Shown here piece after piece: positions 1 through 9,830 of a stretch of 10,512 bases of DNA. Each line of letters opens with the position of its first letter. The first letter of the stretch is position 1. The DNA comes from an uncultured Nitrospiraceae bacterium (lineage in GTDB: Bacteria > Nitrospirota > Thermodesulfovibrionia > Thermodesulfovibrionales > Dissulfurispiraceae), in assembly GCA_947085205.1 (NCBI GenBank), contig CAMTVO010000045.1:1-10512 (forward strand), read 5' to 3'. A model generated the notes under the pieces. That model saw only the letters and a program-made list of their open reading frames with translations, was not told the origin of the DNA and searched no databases. The position numbers and the translations under genes were made by a program.

Positions 1-142
1 AAGAAAGCATAGACTCCAAAAAGGCCTTACAAAAACTGGAAGAGATAAAGAAAGTGACAAACTCATTGTAGCTACAATGAGTTTGTCACTTTCTTTATCT
101 CTTCCAGTTTTTGTAAGGCCTTTTTGGAGTCTATGCTTTCTT
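1..142. repeat. Perfect inverted repeat with no spacer (71-bp arms within the window), duplicating the trpD 3' end
   Basis: 1-71 is the exact reverse complement of 72-142, with the centre at TTGTAG|CTACAA. Plus-strand 3-71 encodes [22 protein letters not shown], identical to the TrpD C-terminus. Confidence 0.97.
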
Positions 143-1082
143 CTGCAATTTCACTTGCTGTCCTGAAGTCCTTTGCAAGTCCTGCAACTACAATTGCTGC
201 TGCTGAGTTCATGACCACTATGTCCCGCTTTGGGCCTTTGTCCCCATTGAGGATTGAAAGTGTTATATCCGCATTCTCTTTTTTGTTGCCTCCTGCAAGA
301 TCCCTGCAATCAGCCCTTTGAAATCCGAAGTCTTCCGGTGTTATGTAAGAGGTCTCGACTTTTCCGTCTTTATATCTCGAAACCCTTGTGCCGTCGCATA
401 TGGTTATTTCGTCAAGACCGTCTTCTCCATGAACAACCATTGCATCAACAGCGCCAAGGTTTCCAAGCACCGATGCCAACGGCTCTGTCAGTTTGTCGGC
501 AAAAACGCCCAATACCTGCCGCTTTGCACTCGCGGGGTTTGTGAGCGGGCCGAGGATATTGAATACTGTCCTTATGCCTATTTCCCTGCGCGGGCCGATT
601 GCGAATTTCATTGCAGGATGGAACAATGGAGCAAAGAGAAAACCGAAGTTCGTCTCAAACAGGCATTTTTCAACCTTTTCAGGGGGTAGTTCGATATTTA
701 CCCCGAGGGCCTCAAGCACATCTGCACTTCCAGACTGGCTCGATACCGAGCGGTTTCCGTGTTTTGCGACAGGCACTCCGGATGCAGCAACAACAATGGC
801 TGTTGTCGTTGAGATGTTAAATGTACCTGACATGTCGCCGCCTGTGCCGCATGTGTCGATAACCCCTTCAGGGGCTTTAATCTTTGTAGCCTTCTCCCTC
901 AGTATCTTTGCTGCGCCTGTGATTTCTTCTATTGTCTCACCCTTAATCCGCAAGGCTGTGAGGAATGCGCCTATCTGTGCGTCTGTGGCCTTACCTTCCA
1001 TTATCTCTGTCATGCACTCTGCCATTTCGGATTCGGAAAGGCTTATGTTTTGTATTACGAGACTTATGGCCTCTTTTATCAT
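72..1082 (-). CDS. trpD: Anthranilate phosphoribosyltransferase
   Basis: 336 aa with motifs [46 protein letters not shown] and DGLDEI. The start overlaps the trpG stop (ATGA). Confidence 0.98.
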
Positions 1083-1690
1083 GCCGTTTTCCCCAGCTTT
1101 ATGAAGTTCCTCAAAAGGTCCTTGCCCACTGTTGTGAGTATGGATTCTGGATGAAACTGAACGCCCTCGACTATAAACTCTTTATGCCTCACTCCCATTA
1201 TAATAATGTCTGACTCCTGACCCCTGACCTCTGACCCCTGACTCATATATGTCCATGCAGTTATTTCGAGGCAGTCCGGAAGTGTCTCTTTTTTTATTAC
1301 GAGGGAATGGTATCTTGTCGCCTCAAATGGATTAGGCAGGCCTTCGAATATCGTCTTTCCATCGTGATAAATCATGGATGTCTTTCCATGCATCAGATTC
1401 GGCGCCCTCACAATCTCTCCGCCAAATGCAGCTCCTATGGACTGATGACCGAGGCATACGCCTAAAATCGGGATCTTTCCTGCAAAATACTTGATTGCAT
1501 CTATGGATATTCCGGCCTCTCTCGGTGTGCATGGGCCCGGAGATATGACAATCCTTTCAGGATTCATTTTTTCTATGTCATCGATAGTTGTCTTGTCGTT
1601 CCTGAATACTCTAATATCCTCGCCAAGCTCTCCGAGATACTGGACGAGGTTGTATGTAAAAGAGTCGTAGTTGTCTATCATCAAAATCAT
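1079..1690 (-). CDS. trpG: Anthranilate synthase component II (class I glutamine amidotransferase, TrpG/PabA family)
   Basis: [16 protein letters not shown]-terminus, ISPGP, GVCLGHQ (catalytic Cys), RYHSL, QFHPES (His-Glu). Lies between trpE and trpD. Confidence 0.96.
1210..1244. repeat. Five tandem heptamers CTGACYY inside trpG
   Basis: CTGACTC CTGACCC CTGACCT CTGACCC CTGACTC, encoding roughly [12 protein letters not shown] on the minus strand. Confidence 0.92.
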
Positions 1691-1692
1691 AT

Positions 1693-3180
1693 TTAACCCC
1701 TCTCAAAAAACTCTACGGCCTTCATCATTGCCATTGCCTTGTTTACGGTCTCCATATATTCTTTTTCCGGCACAGAGTCGGCAACAATCCCTGCGCCTGC
1801 CTGAACATATACCTTACCGTTTTTTATAATCAATGTCCTGATTGTGATGCAAGTATCCATATTTGCTGAATAGCCGAAATAGCCGACTGAACCTGCATAC
1901 GGCCCCCTTTTTGTAGGTTCAAGCTCCTCTATTATTTCCATAGCCCTTACCTTTGGAGCGCCTGTTACTGTACCTGCAGGGAAGCATGCCCTGAATACAT
2001 CAAAGGCATCAAGACCCTCCTTGAGCCTGCCTTCCACATTTGATACAAGATGCATCACATGGCTGTAACGCTCGACATTCATGAGTTCCGTAACCTTGAC
2101 AGAACCCATTTCCGAAACCCTTCCTACATCGTTCCTTCCCAAATCAACAAGCATTATGTGCTCTGCGAGCTCTTTCGGGTCTTTCTTTAAATCCTCTTCA
2201 AGTAATCTGTCTTCCTCTTCTGTTTCCCCTCTCTTTCTTGTCCCTGCAATCGGTCTGAGGGTTATTTTGTCTCCTTCGAGGCGCACGAGGATTTCGGGAG
2301 AAGATCCGACGATTTGCGACTCGCCTATATCGAGGTAATACATGTACGGAGAAGGGTTTATTATCCTTAAAGCCCTGTATATGTCAAAAGGATTTATGTC
2401 AGCCTTTCTCTCAAACCGCTGTGAAAGTACGAGTTGAAAAACATCGCCTGCCTTTATGTACTCCTTTGATTTTGTTACTGCGTTCAGAAAGTCCTCTTTT
2501 GTAAAATTGGAAGAAAAATCGCCGGTGGAGGCGATAGGCGATAGGTTATAGGCAATGGGTGTAGTCCCTTGCCTTAATTCTTCTATAATTTTATCTATAC
2601 GTCCCTCTGCCTCTTCGTATGCGTTTTTAATGTCTCTCCCCTCTGTGCGGGTGTTGCATACCACTTTTATAGTCTGTTTGAGGTTGTCGAAGACGAGGAC
2701 CGTATCGGTGAGCATGAGGAACACATCAGGCATGTCGATCTCCGGTTTTGGATTGTCAGGAATTCTTTCGAAGAACTTTACGACATCATAGCCTATGTAG
2801 CCTACAAAGCCGCCTGAGAACCTCGGCAATCCCTTAACATCGACAGGTTTGAATTTGGAAAGGATGTTCTTCACAAAATCAAGAGGGTCTGCTGCAGCAA
2901 TAAACCTTTCATCGGTGCGAGATCCTTCGAATTCCGCATTATGGGTTACTGTCGTCTCCCCTTTCCTGCAAATCACAGTCATCGACGGCTCTATGCCGAT
3001 AAACGAGTATCTCGCCCATTTTTCACCGCCGATAACGCTCTCTAAAAGGAAAGACGGCTTTTTGTTCAGCTTGAGATAGGCGCTTACAGGAGTCTCGACA
3101 TCTCCAAGTATCTCTTTGTAAAGAGGGATAAGGTTTCCCTTTTTTGACAGCTCTTTAAATTCGTTTAAGTTCAGATTCAT
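1693..3180 (-). CDS. trpE: Anthranilate synthase component I
   Basis: Motifs [49 protein letters not shown] and AGAGIV. Start placed at ATG 3180 (MNLNLNEF), which has AGGA just upstream, rather than TTG 3216. Confidence 0.96.
2530..2557. repeat. Four degenerate tandem heptamers in the trpE interdomain linker
   Basis: GGCGATA GGCGATA GGTTATA GGCAATG, encoding [10 protein letters not shown] on the minus strand. Confidence 0.75.
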
Positions 3181-3226
3181 TTTTCCTATTTTAATTGATT
3201 CACATGTTTTTCGCAATTGCCGAAAC

Positions 3227-3256
3227 TTTACTTAAATCACGCCTATCTGTTATAAA
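3227..3256 (+). promoter_or_regulatory. Putative sigma70 promoter for tRNA-Val and the downstream operon
   Basis: TTTACT (3227-3232), an 18-nt spacer, then TATAAA (3251-3256) with an extended -10 TG at 3248-3249. Ends 16 nt before the tRNA. Confidence 0.45.
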
Positions 3257-3272
3257 TACAAGATAATTTCGC

Positions 3273-3347
3273 GGGCGATTAGCTCAGTGGGAGAGCGCTT
3301 CCTTCACACGGAAGAGGTCGCAGGTTCAATCCCTGCATCGCCTACCA
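3273..3347 (+). tRNA. tRNA-Val (anticodon CAC)
   Basis: 75 nt. Acceptor stem GGGCGAT/ATCGCCT, D-arm GCTC..GAGC, anticodon arm CTTCC-TTCACAC-GGAAG (CAC at 3305-3307), T-arm GCAGG-TTCAATC-CCTGC, encoded ACCA end. Confidence 0.98.
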
Positions 3348-3428: not shown

Positions 3429-4727
3429 GTGCACATTGCAGTAATCGGAACAGGTTATGTAGGACTCGTTACAGGCGCATGCTTTTCAGAATTCGGCGTC
3501 TTCGTAACCTGCGTTGATAAAGATAAAAATAAGACAGAGTCTTTGAAACAAGGAGCTATCCCTTTTTATGAACCAGGCCTCGAAGAGCTTGTAAAGAGAA
3601 ATATCAAGCAAGGCAGACTGAAATTCACAACAGACATCGGAGAAGCAATCGAAGAATCGCTCGTCATCTTTATTGCCGTCGGCACACCTCCGAGAGAAGA
3701 CGGCTCTGCTGACCTCAGTTATGTGGATGAGGTTTCAAAAGAGATTGCAAACCATATAAAAAGCTACAAGGTCATCGTAACAAAAAGCACTGTGCCTGTA
3801 GGGACAGGAGAAAGAATAAGGGGTATAATCTCTCAGAATCTCAAAGAAGAGGTCGATTTCGATATAGTCTCGAATCCTGAATTCCTCCGAGAAGGCGCTG
3901 CGATAGAGGATTTCATGAGGCCGAACAGGGTTGTCATAGGAGCAAAGAGCCAGCAGGCAATAGCGATTATGAAAGATCTCTACAAGCCTCTCTATCTCAT
4001 CGAGACATCATTTGTAATAACAAATATAGAAACAGCGGAGCTTATAAAATACGCCTCAAACTCTTTCCTTGCCGCAAAAATCTCGTTTATCAATGAAATG
4101 GCGATGCTGTGCGAAAAGGTAGGTGCAGATGTTAATGTAGTTGCAAAAGGAATGGGGCTTGACGGAAGGATAGGGACGAAGTTCCTCCATGCAGGGCCGG
4201 GATTCGGCGGTTCATGTTTTCCTAAAGATACAAAGGCATTATTAAAAATCGCCGCAGACAAAGGCGTGAAGTTAAGTATAGTCGATGCGGCAATAAAGGC
4301 GAATGAAAATCAACTGGTGTGGGCAGCGGACAAGATTGAAAGTGCTTTTAATGACATCAACGGCAAAACTATTGCCGTTTTGGGGCTATCCTTCAAGCCC
4401 AATACAGACGACATAAGAGAAGCGCCTGCGATTTTCATTATTCAAAGCCTTTTAAAAGAAGGGGCGGCTGTAAACGCATACGACCCTGTTGCAATGGATA
4501 ATACAAAGGCAATACTGCCTGATATAACATATTGCAAAGATGCATACGATGCATGCGAAAATGCAGACGCTGTTGTCATTGTCACAGAATGGAACCAGTT
4601 CAGAAACCTCGATTTGGAGAGGCTTGCCAAGCTTTTGAAGCAGCCCTATTTCTTTGATCTCAGAAATATATATGACCCTCAGAGAATGAAAACGCTGGGA
4701 TTCAGATACTACTCTATCGGCCGATAA
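3429..4727 (+). CDS. ugd: UDP-glucose 6-dehydrogenase
   Basis: GTG start with SD AAGGAG (3415-3420). Motifs IGTGYVGL (Rossmann), AVGTP, KSTVPVGT, SNPEFLREG, ELIKYASN, GFGGSCFPKD (catalytic Cys), FKPNTDDIRE and DLRN. Confidence 0.97.
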   Translation: MHIAVIGTGYVGLVTGACFSEFGVFVTCVDKDKNKTESLKQGAIPFYEPGLEELVKRNIKQGRLKFTTDIGEAIEESLVIFIAVGTPPREDGSADLSYVDEVSKEIANHIKSYKVIVTKSTVPVGTGERIRGIISQNLKEEVDFDIVSNPEFLREGAAIEDFMRPNRVVIGAKSQQAIAIMKDLYKPLYLIETSFVITNIETAELIKYASNSFLAAKISFINEMAMLCEKVGADVNVVAKGMGLDGRIGTKFLHAGPGFGGSCFPKDTKALLKIAADKGVKLSIVDAAIKANENQLVWAADKIESAFNDINGKTIAVLGLSFKPNTDDIREAPAIFIIQSLLKEGAAVNAYDPVAMDNTKAILPDITYCKDAYDACENADAVVIVTEWNQFRNLDLERLAKLLKQPYFFDLRNIYDPQRMKTLGFRYYSIGR

Positions 4728-4755: not shown

Positions 4756-4923
4756 GTGAAGTGTAAAGAATGCAATGGCGAGCTGAGGTTGATTATCGGT
4801 TGAAAGACCGTATATTTCCGCTGCATGGAGTGCGGCATGGAGTTTAAGGTTTCTGAATATATCGATGAAATTGACGGCGATACATGGGACAGGATAGCCA
4901 TCAGGCCATGTAATCGAGCATAA
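4756..4923 (+). CDS. Small dual-CXXC (zinc-ribbon-like) protein with in-frame UGA; probable selenoprotein, 55 aa
   Basis: SD GAGGT (4745-4749) then GTG 4756. Translation MKCKECNGELRLIIG-U(TGA 4801-4803)-KTVYFRCMECGMEFKVSEYIDEIDGDTWDRIAIRPCNRA*. Fills the ugd-NYN gap and has a SECIS-like hairpin after the UGA. An in-frame ATG at 4741 is an alternative start. Confidence 0.85.
4805..4852 (+). promoter_or_regulatory. Putative bacterial SECIS element
   Basis: Upper stem GCUGCA (4820-4825)/UGCGGC (4831-4836) with loop UGGAG; UUCC (4816-4819)/GGAG (4839-4842) after an AU bulge; lower stem AGACC/GGUUU. The G-containing loop starts 22 nt after the UGA. Confidence 0.7.
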
Positions 4924-4935
4924 GGGAGGAATGTC

Positions 4936-5463
4936 ATTTCTTATATCATAATCGACGGATACAATGTCATCGGGATTTTCCATAAGGATATGGAAAAGGC
5001 GAGGGACGGGTTTGTTGACCTTCTGATAGGCTACAGAAAAATAAAGATGCATGACATCACAGTGGTCTTCGACGGACACAAGAGCGGCTCAGGTATTGAG
5101 AATGTGGCAGTTAGAGGGGGAGTGAAAATCATCTATTCAAGACTCGGAGACCGGGCTGATGATGTTATAAAGAGGCTTATATCGAAGGACAGAAGGGAAT
5201 GGATTGTGGTGACTTCTGACAGAGGCATTGCTGACCATGCATGGTCTGTGAATTCAATACCGATACCGTCAGACAGGTTTTTCGAGACAGTATCAAAGCA
5301 GATAAATCGGAATAACGCAGAAACAGAAACTACAGCCAAAGATGCCGATGAGTTTTTATACAAAGACCTTGATGATGCCGAATATTCCAATTCTTTAAAA
5401 GGCAATCCGAATAAGCTTTCAAAAAAAGAAAAAGCGGTCAGAAGGGCATTGAGCAAATTATAA
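4936..5463 (+). CDS. NYN domain (YacP/Rae1-like, PIN fold) putative endoribonuclease, probable AUU start
   Basis: The frame extends upstream of ATG 4990 to give SYIIIDGYNVIG (the DGYN motif), followed by VVFDG, ADDVI and VVTSDR. SD GGGAGG (4924-4929) lies 6 nt before in-frame ATT 4936. No in-frame ATG/GTG/TTG occurs between TAA 4923 and the motif. Confidence 0.85.
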   Translation: MSYIIIDGYNVIGIFHKDMEKARDGFVDLLIGYRKIKMHDITVVFDGHKSGSGIENVAVRGGVKIIYSRLGDRADDVIKRLISKDRREWIVVTSDRGIADHAWSVNSIPIPSDRFFETVSKQINRNNAETETTAKDADEFLYKDLDDAEYSNSLKGNPNKLSKKEKAVRRALSKL

Positions 5464-5465
5464 AA

Positions 5466-6359
5466 ATGGTTAATTGGTTTTTAAAGCTTAGACCTGCTGA
5501 TACTATAACCGCCTTATTCAGTTTTCTTCTTTTAATTCTAACTGCTATTTTTTACAAAAAAATCCCATCTGCGGGTTACCTCATGCTTATATATGCGTCA
5601 TTGATATTTTTTCAATTAACTGTTGTGCGTTTAAGCAGGCTTAACTTATTTCTCACATTGACCCGTGACATAGTATTCCCTGTAATCAGCGTCCTTATTA
5701 TATTTGACAGCCTTGAATTGATTGTTCACAATATCAATCCACAGGATCTGGACTATTTTCTTATAAGGCTTGATTATCTTATCTTTGGGGTTCATCCCAC
5801 CGTTGTTTTGGAAAAGATTATGAATCCATTGTTAACCGATGTTCTTCAAGTCGCTTACTCCACATACTATTTTCTGCCGGTAATGCTGGGTGTGGCGCTT
5901 AAACTGAAAGGCGGGGATGAAGACTTTGAAAAGTCCCTTTTTTTGATACTTCTGTGTTTTTATCTCTCTTATGTGGGTTATGTGCTTGTGCCTGCCCTTG
6001 GTCCGAGGTATGCGATGGAGCATCTCCATGAAGGAGAACTGGCAGGTTTTCTGGTATCCCGGCCCATTCAGGATACATTAAATCTTCTGGAGGGGATTAA
6101 GAGGAATGCTTTCCCCAGCGGACATACAGGGGTTACTCTTATAGTGCTGTTTTTGGCGTTCCGGTATGTAAGGCGGCTTTTCTGGATAATGTTGACTCCG
6201 GCGATACTTCTAATTATTGCCACCGTGTACTGCAGGTATCACTATGTGATTGATGTTATCGCAGGGATATTACTGACTGTTGTTACAATTGCTGTCGGTG
6301 AAGTATACTATTTCTTGCACAAAAGAAGAAATAATGAGCTTGCCAAACACCAAAACTAA
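5466..6359 (+). CDS. PAP2-superfamily polytopic membrane phosphatase/phosphotransferase (Aur1/IPC-synthase-like)
   Basis: Many hydrophobic helices; motifs PALGPR, AFPSGHT and RYHYVIDVIAG. Confidence 0.88.
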   Translation: MVNWFLKLRPADTITALFSFLLLILTAIFYKKIPSAGYLMLIYASLIFFQLTVVRLSRLNLFLTLTRDIVFPVISVLIIFDSLELIVHNINPQDLDYFLIRLDYLIFGVHPTVVLEKIMNPLLTDVLQVAYSTYYFLPVMLGVALKLKGGDEDFEKSLFLILLCFYLSYVGYVLVPALGPRYAMEHLHEGELAGFLVSRPIQDTLNLLEGIKRNAFPSGHTGVTLIVLFLAFRYVRRLFWIMLTPAILLIIATVYCRYHYVIDVIAGILLTVVTIAVGEVYYFLHKRRNNELAKHQN

Positions 6360-6411
6360 GGGAGGAATAATCATTGAGGAGAGAGACAATAAAACTTCCA
6401 AGAGCGGGACA

Positions 6412-7260
6412 ATGATACAGAGCATGACAGGTTTTGGTTCTGCGGAAAGGGATGGATTCAGGGTTGAGGTGCGCTCCTTAAATCACAAATACATTGATAT
6501 TTCTGTCAGGATGCCGTCTGTTTTAATGGAGCACGAAATGCCTATCAGGAACCTGATTAAGGAGAGGTTTACGAGGGGCAAATTTGATGTTAATATATCA
6601 CTTACGGATAAAAGGCAGTTGAAGGTGTGCGTTAACAAAGATATGGCAAAGGCTATGTACAACGCATTTTCGGAACTCCAGAAAGAATTATCTTTGCCGG
6701 GCTCTCTGAGTATCGACTTTTTTTCGGGGTACAGGGAGTTTTTAATGTCAGAAGAGCCGGAATATAATATAGAAGCCTTGTTCAGCGCCCTTAATGACGC
6801 TTTATCAAAGGTCGAGGAGATGCGGAGAAGCGAAGGCGAAACTCTGCGAGGAGAACTCGGAGAGCGGCTGAAAAGGCTCGAAAATATGCAGAGTGAAATA
6901 GAAGGGCTTTCAAAGGGGATGGCAGCTTCATATAAAAAAACGATTTCAAAGAGAATAGCCGAGCTTGTTGCCAATCTGTTGATAGACGAGACAAGGCTTG
7001 CGCAGGAAGTCGCCCTTATGGCACAGAAAAGTGACATAACGGAGGAGTTGGCGAGGTTTAAGAGCCATATACAGCAGTTTCATTCTTCTTTGGACAATGG
7101 AGATGTCATCGGCAGAAAGCTCGATTTTATTCTGCAGGAGATGAACAGGGAGTCAAATACCATCGCATCGAAGACCGATGATGTAAGGGTTATCAATTTG
7201 ACTATAGATATGAAGACCGACATGGAAAAGCTCAGGGAGCAGGTTCAGAATATTCAGTAG
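6412..7260 (+). CDS. yicC: YicC/YloC family endoribonuclease
   Basis: MIQSMTGFG N-terminus, EVRSLNHKY, DITEELARFKSH, GRKLDFILQEMNRESNTIASK, EKLREQVQNIQ. Standard position upstream of remA-gmk. The start may be further upstream (ATT 6373). Confidence 0.95.
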   Translation: MIQSMTGFGSAERDGFRVEVRSLNHKYIDISVRMPSVLMEHEMPIRNLIKERFTRGKFDVNISLTDKRQLKVCVNKDMAKAMYNAFSELQKELSLPGSLSIDFFSGYREFLMSEEPEYNIEALFSALNDALSKVEEMRRSEGETLRGELGERLKRLENMQSEIEGLSKGMAASYKKTISKRIAELVANLLIDETRLAQEVALMAQKSDITEELARFKSHIQQFHSSLDNGDVIGRKLDFILQEMNRESNTIASKTDDVRVINLTIDMKTDMEKLREQVQNIQ

Positions 7261-7282: not shown

Positions 7283-7555
7283 ATGAAAAATATTCTTGTA
7301 AACATAGGATTTGGCAATGTCATATCAGCCGGCAGGGTTGTGGCTGTTGTAAGTCCAGGATCTTCTCCTATTAAGAAGCTGAGGGAAGAGGCAAGGGAGA
7401 GGGGCAAGCTTATAGACGCCACAGAGGGCAAGAAGACACGCTCTATAATAGTTACAGACAGCGACCATATTATACTTTCCGCGATTCAGGTGGAGACAAT
7501 AGCCCAGAGGATTTCCGGCCAGAGGGCTTCTGAGTCAAAGAAAGAATTTGAGTAA
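7283..7555 (+). CDS. remA: DUF370/RemA (YlzA) family regulator
   Basis: [29 protein letters not shown]...[31 protein letters not shown]; yicC-remA-gmk-rpoZ-coaBC synteny. Confidence 0.93.
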
Positions 7556-7613: not shown

Positions 7614-8234
7614 ATGAGACAAAAAAGAGGTAGCCTGTTTGTGGTTTCCGCTCCATCCGGCGCAGGCAAGACCACGCTTTGCCGGAAGCTGAGGGATGCC
7701 TTCCCTGATTTGAAATTTTCTGTCTCTTATACAACCCGCAAGCCGCGCGAGGGCGAGATAGACGACGTTCATTATACCTTTGTTGATGAGGATGAGTTCC
7801 GTTCAATGATAACCGACGGTGAGTTTGTTGAGTGGGCTCAGGTGCACGGCAATTTTTACGGCACTTCCAAAAAAAGGATAGAGGATATGATGAACAAAGG
7901 CTTTGATGTCCTGCTCGATATAGATGTTCATGGTGCAAGGCAGATAAGGGAGCGATTTCCGGACAGCGTATTGATTTTTGTGCTGCCGCCTTCGATAGAC
8001 GAGCTTAAAAAGAGACTTTCGGGCAGGATGACCGATTCTGAAGATGTGATTAAGAAGAGGCTGAAGAATGCGGCAGACGAGATAAGCGGGTATAAAAATT
8101 ACGATTATGTTATTATAAACGACCTTTTTGAGGACGCCCTCAAGGAGATGGTTGCTGTAGTCGTTGCCGAAAGGGCAAGGACATCCAAGATAGACGAAGA
8201 ACTGGTAAGAGAAAATTTTTTGAAGGAGGAGTAA
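7614..8234 (+). CDS. gmk: Guanylate kinase
   Basis: SAPSGAGKTT P-loop, SVSYTTRKPREGE, NFYGT, LLDIDVHG, FVLPPS. ATG 7614 has SD AAGGA at 7602-7606. Confidence 0.97.
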   Translation: MRQKRGSLFVVSAPSGAGKTTLCRKLRDAFPDLKFSVSYTTRKPREGEIDDVHYTFVDEDEFRSMITDGEFVEWAQVHGNFYGTSKKRIEDMMNKGFDVLLDIDVHGARQIRERFPDSVLIFVLPPSIDELKKRLSGRMTDSEDVIKKRLKNAADEISGYKNYDYVIINDLFEDALKEMVAVVVAERARTSKIDEELVRENFLKEE

Positions 8235-8235
8235 C

Positions 8236-8637
8236 ATGGACATTATAGCTCTCCCTGTAGAGTATGACAAAAAGAAGATAGAGAGCAGATACAGGCTTGT
8301 GGTAATAGCCGCACAGAGGGCAAGGGAACTTTCTTTAGGCGCAGCGCAGAAGGTGCAGACAAAGGCAAAGAAGGTGACCACAACCGCCATTCTGGAATCA
8401 CTTTCGGGCAGCATAGAGTTTATAACCGGCGAAGATGCGGTTATTGCAAAAGAAAAGGCGGAAAAGATAGATTACAAGAAGCTGATAGAGGAGAGGAGAA
8501 GGCCGATAGAGGATCTGTCCGAGCTTGAAAAAGACCTGAAGGTTTATCTCCACGAAAAGGGAGCAACAGAGAGGGCTTTAGAGGAGCTTTTCGCAGAGAC
8601 CGAAGAGGGCGAGGAGTCCGAAGAAGTCAAAGAGTAA
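8236..8637 (+). CDS. rpoZ: RNA polymerase omega subunit with a long charged C-terminal extension
   Basis: SRYRLVVIAAQRAREL and KVTTTAILE core; SD AGGAGGAG; located between gmk and coaBC. Confidence 0.93.
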   Translation: MDIIALPVEYDKKKIESRYRLVVIAAQRARELSLGAAQKVQTKAKKVTTTAILESLSGSIEFITGEDAVIAKEKAEKIDYKKLIEERRRPIEDLSELEKDLKVYLHEKGATERALEELFAETEEGEESEEVKE

Positions 8638-8648
8638 AAGGGATAGCC

Positions 8649-9830
8649 GTGCTAAAGGACAGGTCTATACTTTTAAGCATTACAGGAAGCGTAGCCGCTT
8701 ACAAGTCCATAGAACTAATAAAGGCATTAAGACATGAAGGGGCCTCTGTTAAGGTTATCATGACAGAGGCCTCAAGGCGTTTTATAACGCCCCTGTCCAT
8801 CGAGCTTGCATCCGGCGAGAAGGTCTATTGCGATATGTTCGAGTCTCCGCTTTCTCATGTAAGCCTTCCGGCAGATTCCGACCTGTTTGTTATAGCGCCT
8901 GCAACAGCCAATATTATAGGTAAATACGCAAACGGCATGGCAGACGACCTTCTGAGCACTGCGTTGTTAGCTTTTAATGGCAAGGTGATTATTGCTCCAG
9001 CCATGAACTGGAGGATGTACGAGAATCAAATCTTTCAGAAAAACCTTCAATATCTCAATTCTATCGGCGTAAAATTCGTAGGCCCTGAAAGGGGGAGCCT
9101 TGCATGCGGCGAGGAAGGCATCGGCAGAATGGCGGATGTCGAGAAGATAATGGAGGCGATAATGACCGCCTTTACGGAACAGGACATGGCAGGAGAGAAT
9201 GTCCTTGTCACAGCAGGGCCTACAAGGGAATACATAGACCCTGTAAGGTACATATCCAACAGGTCATCGGGCAAAATGGGATATGCAATTGCAAAAATTG
9301 CCAAAAGGAGGGGTGCAGATGTCACACTGATAAGCGGCCCGGTGTCGATAAAGCCGCCTGACGGAGTTGATTTAATTCGCGTTGAGACAGCCAATGATAT
9401 GCATGAGGCTGTTATGGACAATATCTCGATGTCTTCAATATTAGTGATGTCAGCGGCAGTTGCGGATTACATGCCTGTTGAATCAAAGGGCATGAAGATG
9501 GAAAAGAAAGAGGGATTTTCATTAAATCTCATAAAGACTATAGACATCCTTGAAGAGGCAGGAAGGTTTAAGAATAAGCCGTTCATCGTAGGATTCTCAG
9601 CAGAGACAGGGCAGCGGCTTGACAGGGCAAGGAAAAAGCTCACGGCCAAGGATATAGACATGATTGTATTCAATGACGTGACAAAGGCGGGTTCCGGTTT
9701 TGATACCGATACCAACGAGGTCGTGATTATCGACGGAAAAGGCGAGAAAGAACTTCCATTAATGAGCAAGGAAGATGTTGCTGTCACTTTATTTGACAGG
9801 ATAATAGAATTAAAGAATAACACCGGTTAG
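8649..9830 (+). CDS. coaBC: Bifunctional phosphopantothenoylcysteine decarboxylase / phosphopantothenate-cysteine ligase
   Basis: TGSVAAYK, APATANIIGK, APAMN, LACGEEGIGR, TAGPTREYIDPVRYISNRSSGKMG, AAVADY, VGFSAET. Confidence 0.97.
   Translation: MLKDRSILLSITGSVAAYKSIELIKALRHEGASVKVIMTEASRRFITPLSIELASGEKVYCDMFESPLSHVSLPADSDLFVIAPATANIIGKYANGMADDLLSTALLAFNGKVIIAPAMNWRMYENQIFQKNLQYLNSIGVKFVGPERGSLACGEEGIGRMADVEKIMEAIMTAFTEQDMAGENVLVTAGPTREYIDPVRYISNRSSGKMGYAIAKIAKRRGADVTLISGPVSIKPPDGVDLIRVETANDMHEAVMDNISMSSILVMSAAVADYMPVESKGMKMEKKEGFSLNLIKTIDILEEAGRFKNKPFIVGFSAETGQRLDRARKKLTAKDIDMIVFNDVTKAGSGFDTDTNEVVIIDGKGEKELPLMSKEDVAVTLFDRIIELKNNTG

Follow-up and report, generated by a model that had tools for sequence, protein, structure and literature searches.

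A predicted non-canonical start codon on the Rae1-type nuclease gene of the order Thermodesulfovibrionales, downstream of a selenoprotein gene

The stretch of DNA analysed here, called the window, is a complete 10.5-kb contig (CAMTVO010000045.1, 10,512 nucleotides) of assembly GCA_947085205.1, an uncultured member of the Dissulfurispiraceae (Nitrospirota, order Thermodesulfovibrionales) whose genome is 89.7% complete. Its forward strand carries, in this order, genes for a UDP-glucose dehydrogenase (ugd), a small selenoprotein, an NYN-domain nuclease, a PAP2_3 membrane protein and a YicC/YloC-family endoribonuclease, followed by remA, gmk, rpoZ and coaBC (Table 1). An earlier note on this DNA took the four genes from the selenoprotein to yicC for a candidate module in which selenium supply could govern synthesis of the nuclease. 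Based on sequence comparison, such a selenium-gated four-gene module is not supported. What appears to be new is a non-canonical start codon on the gene of a Rae1-type nuclease, predicted across the order.

The nuclease gene and its start codon

That the NYN gene is of the Rae1/YacP type, as the earlier note had it, is borne out by the PF05991 profile (83.2 bits, gathering threshold 24.6) and by a Foldseek search in which the only matches below E 0.001 are chains of Bacillus subtilis Rae1 (PDB 5MQ8/5MQ9; best E 1.6e-7). Asp7, Asp46, Asp75 and Asp95 are invariant in 103/103 homologues, and Asp7 and Asp75 align with the catalytic Asp7 and Asp81 of B. subtilis Rae1, whose catalytic mutant is reported as D7N D81N (PMC10351889). 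Fold, N-terminal register and the catalytic Asp pair are thus common to both proteins, whereas the gene of the window differs in its non-canonical start and in its place before PAP2, yicC and gmk. From these comparisons we infer a Rae1-type nuclease that is active in this lineage. Rae1 is reported to cleave 12 nucleotides upstream of stalled ribosomes, including at the stop codons of open reading frames (ORFs) of 16-17 codons (PMC12407103). It is also reported to act on collided ribosomes and to occur in more than 94% of surveyed Nitrospirota (PMC13622287). Among viral contigs, a scan turned up no relative of NYN.

A weak start of the NYN gene had been noticed before, correctly, but it appears to be ATT 4936 and not the first ATG, at 4990. 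Between the selenoprotein stop and the DGYN motif the NYN frame contains no ATG, GTG or TTG. ATT 4936, which precedes Asp7 by six codons, aligns with Met1 of Rae1 and lies 6 nucleotides after GGAGG, with little local structure around this Shine-Dalgarno (SD) sequence (z +1.25). The SD (4925-4929) directly follows the selenoprotein stop (TAA 4921-4923), as already observed. Initiation at ATG 4990 was rejected, as it would remove the invariant DGYN motif. An out-of-frame ATG at 4931 (a 6-codon mini-ORF or an entry by frameshift), which is 1 nucleotide from the SD core and absent in most relatives, was also set aside. In the public collection the protein is recorded as the 157-amino-acid form from ATG 4990, without the catalytic Asp7, and its 175-amino-acid form is absent; among annotated relatives some begin at the right codon and others at scattered places. 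A start at ATT 4936 corrects the annotation and restores Asp7.

At the same codon, relatives carry ATT, ATC, ATA, TTG, GTG or ATG. Because the canonical codons (ATG, GTG, TTG) swap there with ATT, ATC or ATA (together ATH, that is AUU, AUC or AUA) and the register agrees with Rae1, the position of the start is probably fixed. Two rae1 copies from Bacillales have ATG at the matching position and one from an actinomycete has GTG near it (three records). In a first sample of 66 genomes of the order we count 35 ATH and 27 canonical starts; 2 more are ambiguous and 2 fall in neither group. In G027, counted as ATH, initiation may instead be at an ATG four codons further 5'. In other classes, 37 of the 53 genomes with an NYN match were examined, and all 37 starts are canonical. 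Any canonical codon is missing from the open frame before Asp7 in 28/66 NYN genes, against 4/285 for eight neighbour genes (PAP2 in G002 and G016, yggU in G003 and G034). ATT accounts for 29/37 Ile codons at the start place and for 209/633 inside the same genes, and the median SD energy in this sample is -10.3 kcal/mol for ATH against -4.7 kcal/mol for canonical starts.

A second sample started from 80 named loci; without 11 duplicates and 1 locus truncated at a contig end, its 68 loci hold 52 ATH, 15 canonical and 1 other start, and 39 of its 52 ATH genes have no canonical alternative. In a quick tree of 72 NYN proteins the start class changes 13 times, at least four of these changes being forced by strong branches, and ATH is found across deep branches. 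Translation of the NYN gene is expected to begin at ATT 4936, and the order-wide start would join the few AUU starts known to be conserved in bacteria. Literature searches covering passages and abstracts turned up no paper that describes rae1 with a start other than AUG or that links a selenoprotein to NYN. Rae1 has recently been tied to ribosome stalling and collisions, and the control of its level is not addressed in the passages and abstracts that we found; an order-wide AUU start would offer a one-codon handle on that level.

The selenoprotein gene and the gene neighbourhood

The gene upstream of NYN encodes, judging by its sequence, a genuine selenoprotein of an already known family, as the earlier note had read it. 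Its product matches the curated NF041197 profile (60.7 bits, cut-off 40), the in-frame UGA at 4801 is invariant across 78 loci, and the source genome contains selA, selB, selD and tRNA-Sec. Of 61 genomes of the order, 53 contain the family, with 55 matches in all; each match has a single TGA, which is codon 16 in 55/55, and selA is detected in 59 of the 61 genomes. Cys3, Cys6, Cys23 and Cys26 are invariant (59 rows), with selenocysteine (Sec) 16 between the two CxxC motifs; natural Cys forms of the family occur (P0002, P0003). A 7-pair hairpin 16-33 nucleotides 3' of the UGA, placed like a selenocysteine insertion sequence (SECIS), beats synonymous controls in 76/78 loci, against 36/78 and 35/78 for control segments. 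Bacterial SECIS elements have a G early in the apical loop, and G occupies this position in 71/78 loci. Compensatory changes in the hairpin are few and chiefly affect the loop-closing pair. The Cys codons within it, those of the second CxxC, are TGC in 72/78 and 76/78 loci, and those of the first CxxC in 58 and 47.

A structure model of the selenoprotein is zinc-ribbon-like (predicted local distance difference test score 76), with Sec at the turn that joins two strands. A structure search with this model returned only weak, generic zinc-ribbon rows (best Z 3.5), and Foldseek gave no match below E 0.001. A table in a 2026 review (PMC13188914) counts the family (OS_HP3, or hypothetical protein DW) as one of the known prokaryotic selenoproteins that have RxU/GxU motifs. 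Family membership is common to that table and our work; the review passages assign the family neither a function nor a gene neighbourhood, and the tie to YkgJ-like genes and rae1 comes from the present analysis. One genome that is 98% complete (G006) has the selenoprotein gene with its TGA and no selA match. Another homologue (P0004) has Trp at the Sec position and at its end, which fits a gene caller reading TGA as Trp. At loci L043, L051, L053, L059 and L064 an extended -10-like TGnTATATT lies about 9 nucleotides 5' of the selenoprotein ATG and there is no SD, hinting at leaderless or near-leaderless transcripts.

Table 1. Features of the window (coordinates count from its first nucleotide)
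Feature	Position	Strand	Remarks
UDP-glucose dehydrogenase (ugd)	3429..4727	+	28 nucleotides 5' of the selenoprotein gene
Dual-CXXC small selenoprotein, NF041197	4756..4923	+	55 amino acids, GTG start, Sec at codon 16
In-frame UGA (Sec16)	4801..4803	+	TGA at codon 16 in 55/55 loci; anchor for 78 loci
SECIS-like hairpin	4820..4836	+	spans the second CxxC codons, G at loop start; assessed by synonymous controls
SD core GGAGG of the NYN gene	4925..4929	+	6 nucleotides 5' of ATT
Predicted non-canonical ATT start of NYN	4936..4938	+	aligned with Met1 of B. subtilis Rae1
Rae1/YacP-type NYN endoribonuclease gene	4936..5463	+	175 amino acids; D7, D46, D75, D95
PAP2_3 membrane phosphatase/phosphotransferase gene	5466..6359	+	PAP2_3 profile match
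YicC/YloC-family endoribonuclease gene	6412..7260	+	ATG 6412; heads the yicC-remA-gmk-rpoZ-coaBC block
remA-like	7283-7555	+	
gmk	7614-8234	+	
rpoZ	8236-8637	+	
coaBC	8649-9830	+	

The genes from ugd to coaBC are separated by 28, 12, 2, 52, 22, 58, 1 and 11 nucleotides. The tight co-directional packing described before holds when measured from the selenoprotein stop to ATT 4936 (12), from NYN to PAP2 (2) and from PAP2 to ATG 6412 of yicC (52). So does the statement that there is no obvious terminator: nothing terminator-like lies in any intergenic gap, and weak 5-bp matches occur inside the selenoprotein gene (4797-4810) and inside PAP2. A candidate promoter inside the selenoprotein gene (4789-4816) was discarded, being weak (9/12 matches, a level at which chance alone predicts 17 in the window) and showing no conservation by eye. 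No ugd was found at the equivalent place in the relatives examined.

Conserved adjacency of the selenoprotein and NYN genes, which a module would imply, did not emerge from the neighbourhood survey. The gene directly after the selenoprotein is NYN in 22 of the 78 loci (20 in family f1, 2 in family f10), a gene for a YkgJ-like CxxCxxCC protein in 21 (four families; PF03692, which we take to be the YkgJ profile) and another gene in 35. By group, NYN follows directly in 20/36 f1 loci, 2/24 other loci of the order and 0/18 loci of another class, and none was found within the fetched flank of 12 metagenome loci. The selenoprotein gene lies at most 1.5 kb 5' of NYN in 31/32 f1 genomes that have both, and in 2/17 in other families of the order. 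Congeneric pairs differ in the presence of ykgJ (G018/G032, G027/G008, G006/G026 and G010/G029), so the likeliest origin of direct adjacency is that the ykgJ-like gene in the middle has been lost repeatedly. The wider order is a divergent Cys-cluster gene, the selenoprotein gene, ykgJ, NYN, PAP2, yggU, yicC, remA, gmk and rpoZ. The source genome, in its incomplete (89.7%) assembly, lacks a convincing ykgJ (best E 2.7e-4) and has neither yggU nor the divergent gene. This divergent gene, seen beside the selenoprotein at 29 loci in three families (170-180 amino acids; for instance L060:3386-3928), has no Pfam or NCBIfam match and is nearest to unnamed and YkgJ-named atlas clusters.

The two genes also part company across a phylum sample of 121 genomes. 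In family f18 the selenoprotein is present in 21/26 genomes and NYN exceeds its cut-off in none; in f22 NYN is present in 18/18 and the selenoprotein in 0/18, and NYN without the selenoprotein is seen in f15, f17 and f21-f24. At f18 loci the selenoprotein gene lies behind aspS in at least 12/18, and rpsT adjoins it in two loci. Second copies at L072 and L073 (genomes G012 and G030) stand directly behind an RF-1-domain gene, which we presume to be ArfB-like, and before a CxxCxxCC gene. We regard the selenoprotein as probably a redox protein that binds metal; its steadier neighbours are cysteine-cluster proteins of the YkgJ type.

The PAP2 gene has a PAP2_3 match (76.6, threshold 27) with FPSGH and YHYxxD motifs; assignment to NF052609 (phosphoinositol dihydroceramide synthase) was rejected at 33.8 against a cut-off of 480. 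NYN and PAP2 are the steadiest pair, found in 49/66 genomes of the order. The identity given earlier to yicC stands (TIGR00255, 212.9 against a cut-off of 167.5; full-length match to a solved YicC, E 2e-33). Its membership of a module does not, since yicC belongs to an old yicC-remA-gmk-rpoZ block: a Bacillus record has this block in the same order as the window, megabases from its rae1. The difference in families f1 and f10 is that the selenoprotein, NYN and PAP2 genes, often with ykgJ and yggU, are prefixed to the block. The four genes thus belong to a larger cluster with a changing membership and do not make up a dedicated unit; their families are known, in a mostly known operon.

Possible control of the nuclease

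The 35 ATH starts of the first sample lie behind the selenoprotein gene in 13 cases, behind ykgJ in 10 and behind neither in 12, and eight canonical starts lie behind the selenoprotein gene. In the second sample 46/52 ATH genes have neither gene upstream. For 45 of those 46, a crude ORF caller was applied and reports a divergent upstream gene in 18, two of which extend over the start and could be shadow ORFs. Genes behind a divergent gene would therefore be first in their transcripts, and they often have an extended -10-like hexamer. Because ATH is kept where there is no selenoprotein gene upstream, initiation there would not require ribosomes coming off the selenoprotein gene, and by this comparison the weak NYN start appears independent of that gene.

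We think it probable that this is an inherited, loose housekeeping cluster in which the nuclease is kept low by its own AUU start, likely under repression by initiation factor IF3 and likely not by selenium. In this scheme 30S subunits would initiate de novo at the NYN SD and AUU, and IF3 would reject most of these complexes, as at infC. The nuclease would then stay scarce, with its synthesis following the IF3 loop, and would cut mRNA behind stalled or collided ribosomes, like Rae1 of B. subtilis. IF3 is reported to discriminate against AUU, AUC and AUA and to antagonise leaderless mRNA (PMC4611024, PMC5499595). The window gene resembles infC and pcnB in having a strong SD followed, 5-7 nucleotides on, by a lineage-conserved AUU, AUC or AUA. 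It differs in that its product is a ribosome-associated nuclease and not IF3 or poly(A) polymerase, in having AUG in many genomes, and in that its dependence on IF3 is a prediction. The infC gene of the source genome (L164:1480-1510, G000:C38) appears to start with ATA behind GGAGGTG. More tentatively, and with considerable doubt, the Rae1-type nuclease of Nitrospirota might be held in the IF3 loop by either of two IF3-repressible routes, SD plus AUU in Thermodesulfovibrionales or a leaderless AUG in the other classes. If so, a signal that sets IF3 would also set the supply of a rescue nuclease, and initiation fidelity would be linked to mRNA quality control.

Several points weigh against control by the AUU start. 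Genes with AUU starts are reported as not necessarily poorly expressed (PMC5499595), and about 40% of the first-sample genomes of the order have canonical starts, so AUU is dispensable. Because the genomes are kin, the counts do not stand for independent trials and overstate independence; the second sample was moreover picked by likeness to an ATH-rich alignment. For the leaderless route, a -10-like hexamer lies 4-7 nucleotides before the NYN ATG in 17/37 cases from other classes against 3/140 and 6/156 control ORFs, a crude control that takes the first ATG of long ORFs, and one genus supplies many of the 17. Within the order the hexamer shows no clear enrichment (6/27 against 109/858). One RNA run (X1; a small share, contigs only) has no contig over the selenoprotein gene or its junction with NYN. 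The comparison of genomes also points to long retention of the selenoprotein gene near NYN in 31 of the 32 f1 genomes.

The main rival, which is possible though doubtful, dispenses with IF3 sensing: the gene would be throttled, as at pcnB, interchangeably by AUU, by a weak SD or by leaderless initiation, with no regulatory input. It would fit the weak SDs of canonical-start copies (medians -4.7 and -3.0) and the frequent switching of start class. A strong SD kept beside AUU, however, would partly undo such a throttle and matches the design of infC, and ATT is strongly preferred over ATA and ATC. It is unlikely that the selenoprotein instead serves translation quality control as a partner, redox-active or metal-binding, of the nuclease or of the ribosome. 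Its neighbours do include translation genes repeatedly (rae1, the RF-1-domain gene before two paralogous copies, aspS and rpsT), but the discordant distributions just described, the lack of any fusion among 55 selenoprotein genes and the YkgJ-like genes that flank it in four families speak against a partnership.

The earlier note proposed that only ribosomes decoding UGA16 reach and reinitiate at the NYN start, with polarity on downstream genes. Such a system, more surprising if true, is quite unlikely. In its favour, the gap is 12 nucleotides here and at most 33 in 13/22 direct cases, the selenoprotein gene stands near the cluster head in family f1, and there is a precedent in fdhF of Treponema primitia, for which selenium-dependent transcription through the Sec codon is reported (PMC3892789). 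The likeness is that, with an in-frame UGA and a SECIS near the 5' end, translation could become uncoupled and polarity could follow; the difference is that in the published account the effect concerns the selenoenzyme's own gene, and the arrangement of the window is not conserved. Several observations speak against the gate: AUU is kept where no selenoprotein gene lies upstream, adjacency is limited to 22/78 loci, the distributions are discordant, gaps range over 11-167 nucleotides with ykgJ often between, and the SD of NYN is both strong and accessible. E. coli reporters that have an SD and a gap of 3-20 nucleotides are reported to owe about 40-50% of their initiation to upstream translation (PMC3592434), which is likely a ceiling for any selenium effect on NYN here. 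Selenium thus likely does not switch the nuclease on, and there may be a modest coupling or polarity effect in the source genome, about two-fold or less. A fusion of selenoprotein and NYN by readthrough of the TAA was rejected: both genes share a frame here, but neither gap nor frame is constant among loci, and 55/55 selenoprotein genes stop at 54-60 amino acids. Also very improbable is a self-limiting loop in which low selenium would make ribosomes stall at UGA16, with the nuclease then cleaving the mRNA of its own operon about 12 nucleotides upstream. The reported cleavage distance and the short ORFs cut at their stops (PMC12407103) would suit it, as would a UGA fixed at codon 16 in 55/55 loci. 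That position, however, is unchanged where NYN is unlinked or absent, and the same source indicates that 15 codons are insufficient and that a specific arrest peptide is needed.

Other features of the window

At positions 1-142, over the end of trpD, the sequence folds back on itself perfectly, 73-142 being the reverse complement of 1-70. This fold-back is likely an assembly artefact at the contig end, and it supplies 6/19 terminator-like matches of the window scan. The minus-strand genes at 72-3347, which from their translations we take to be trpE-trpG-trpD-like, are divergent from a tRNA-Val at 3273-3347. Within trpG, 7-base repeats (CTGACCC-like) at 1216-1243 produce an apparent small insertion in the protein. 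RpoZ, of 133 amino acids, has a long acidic C-terminal extension past its omega domain of about 60 amino acids.

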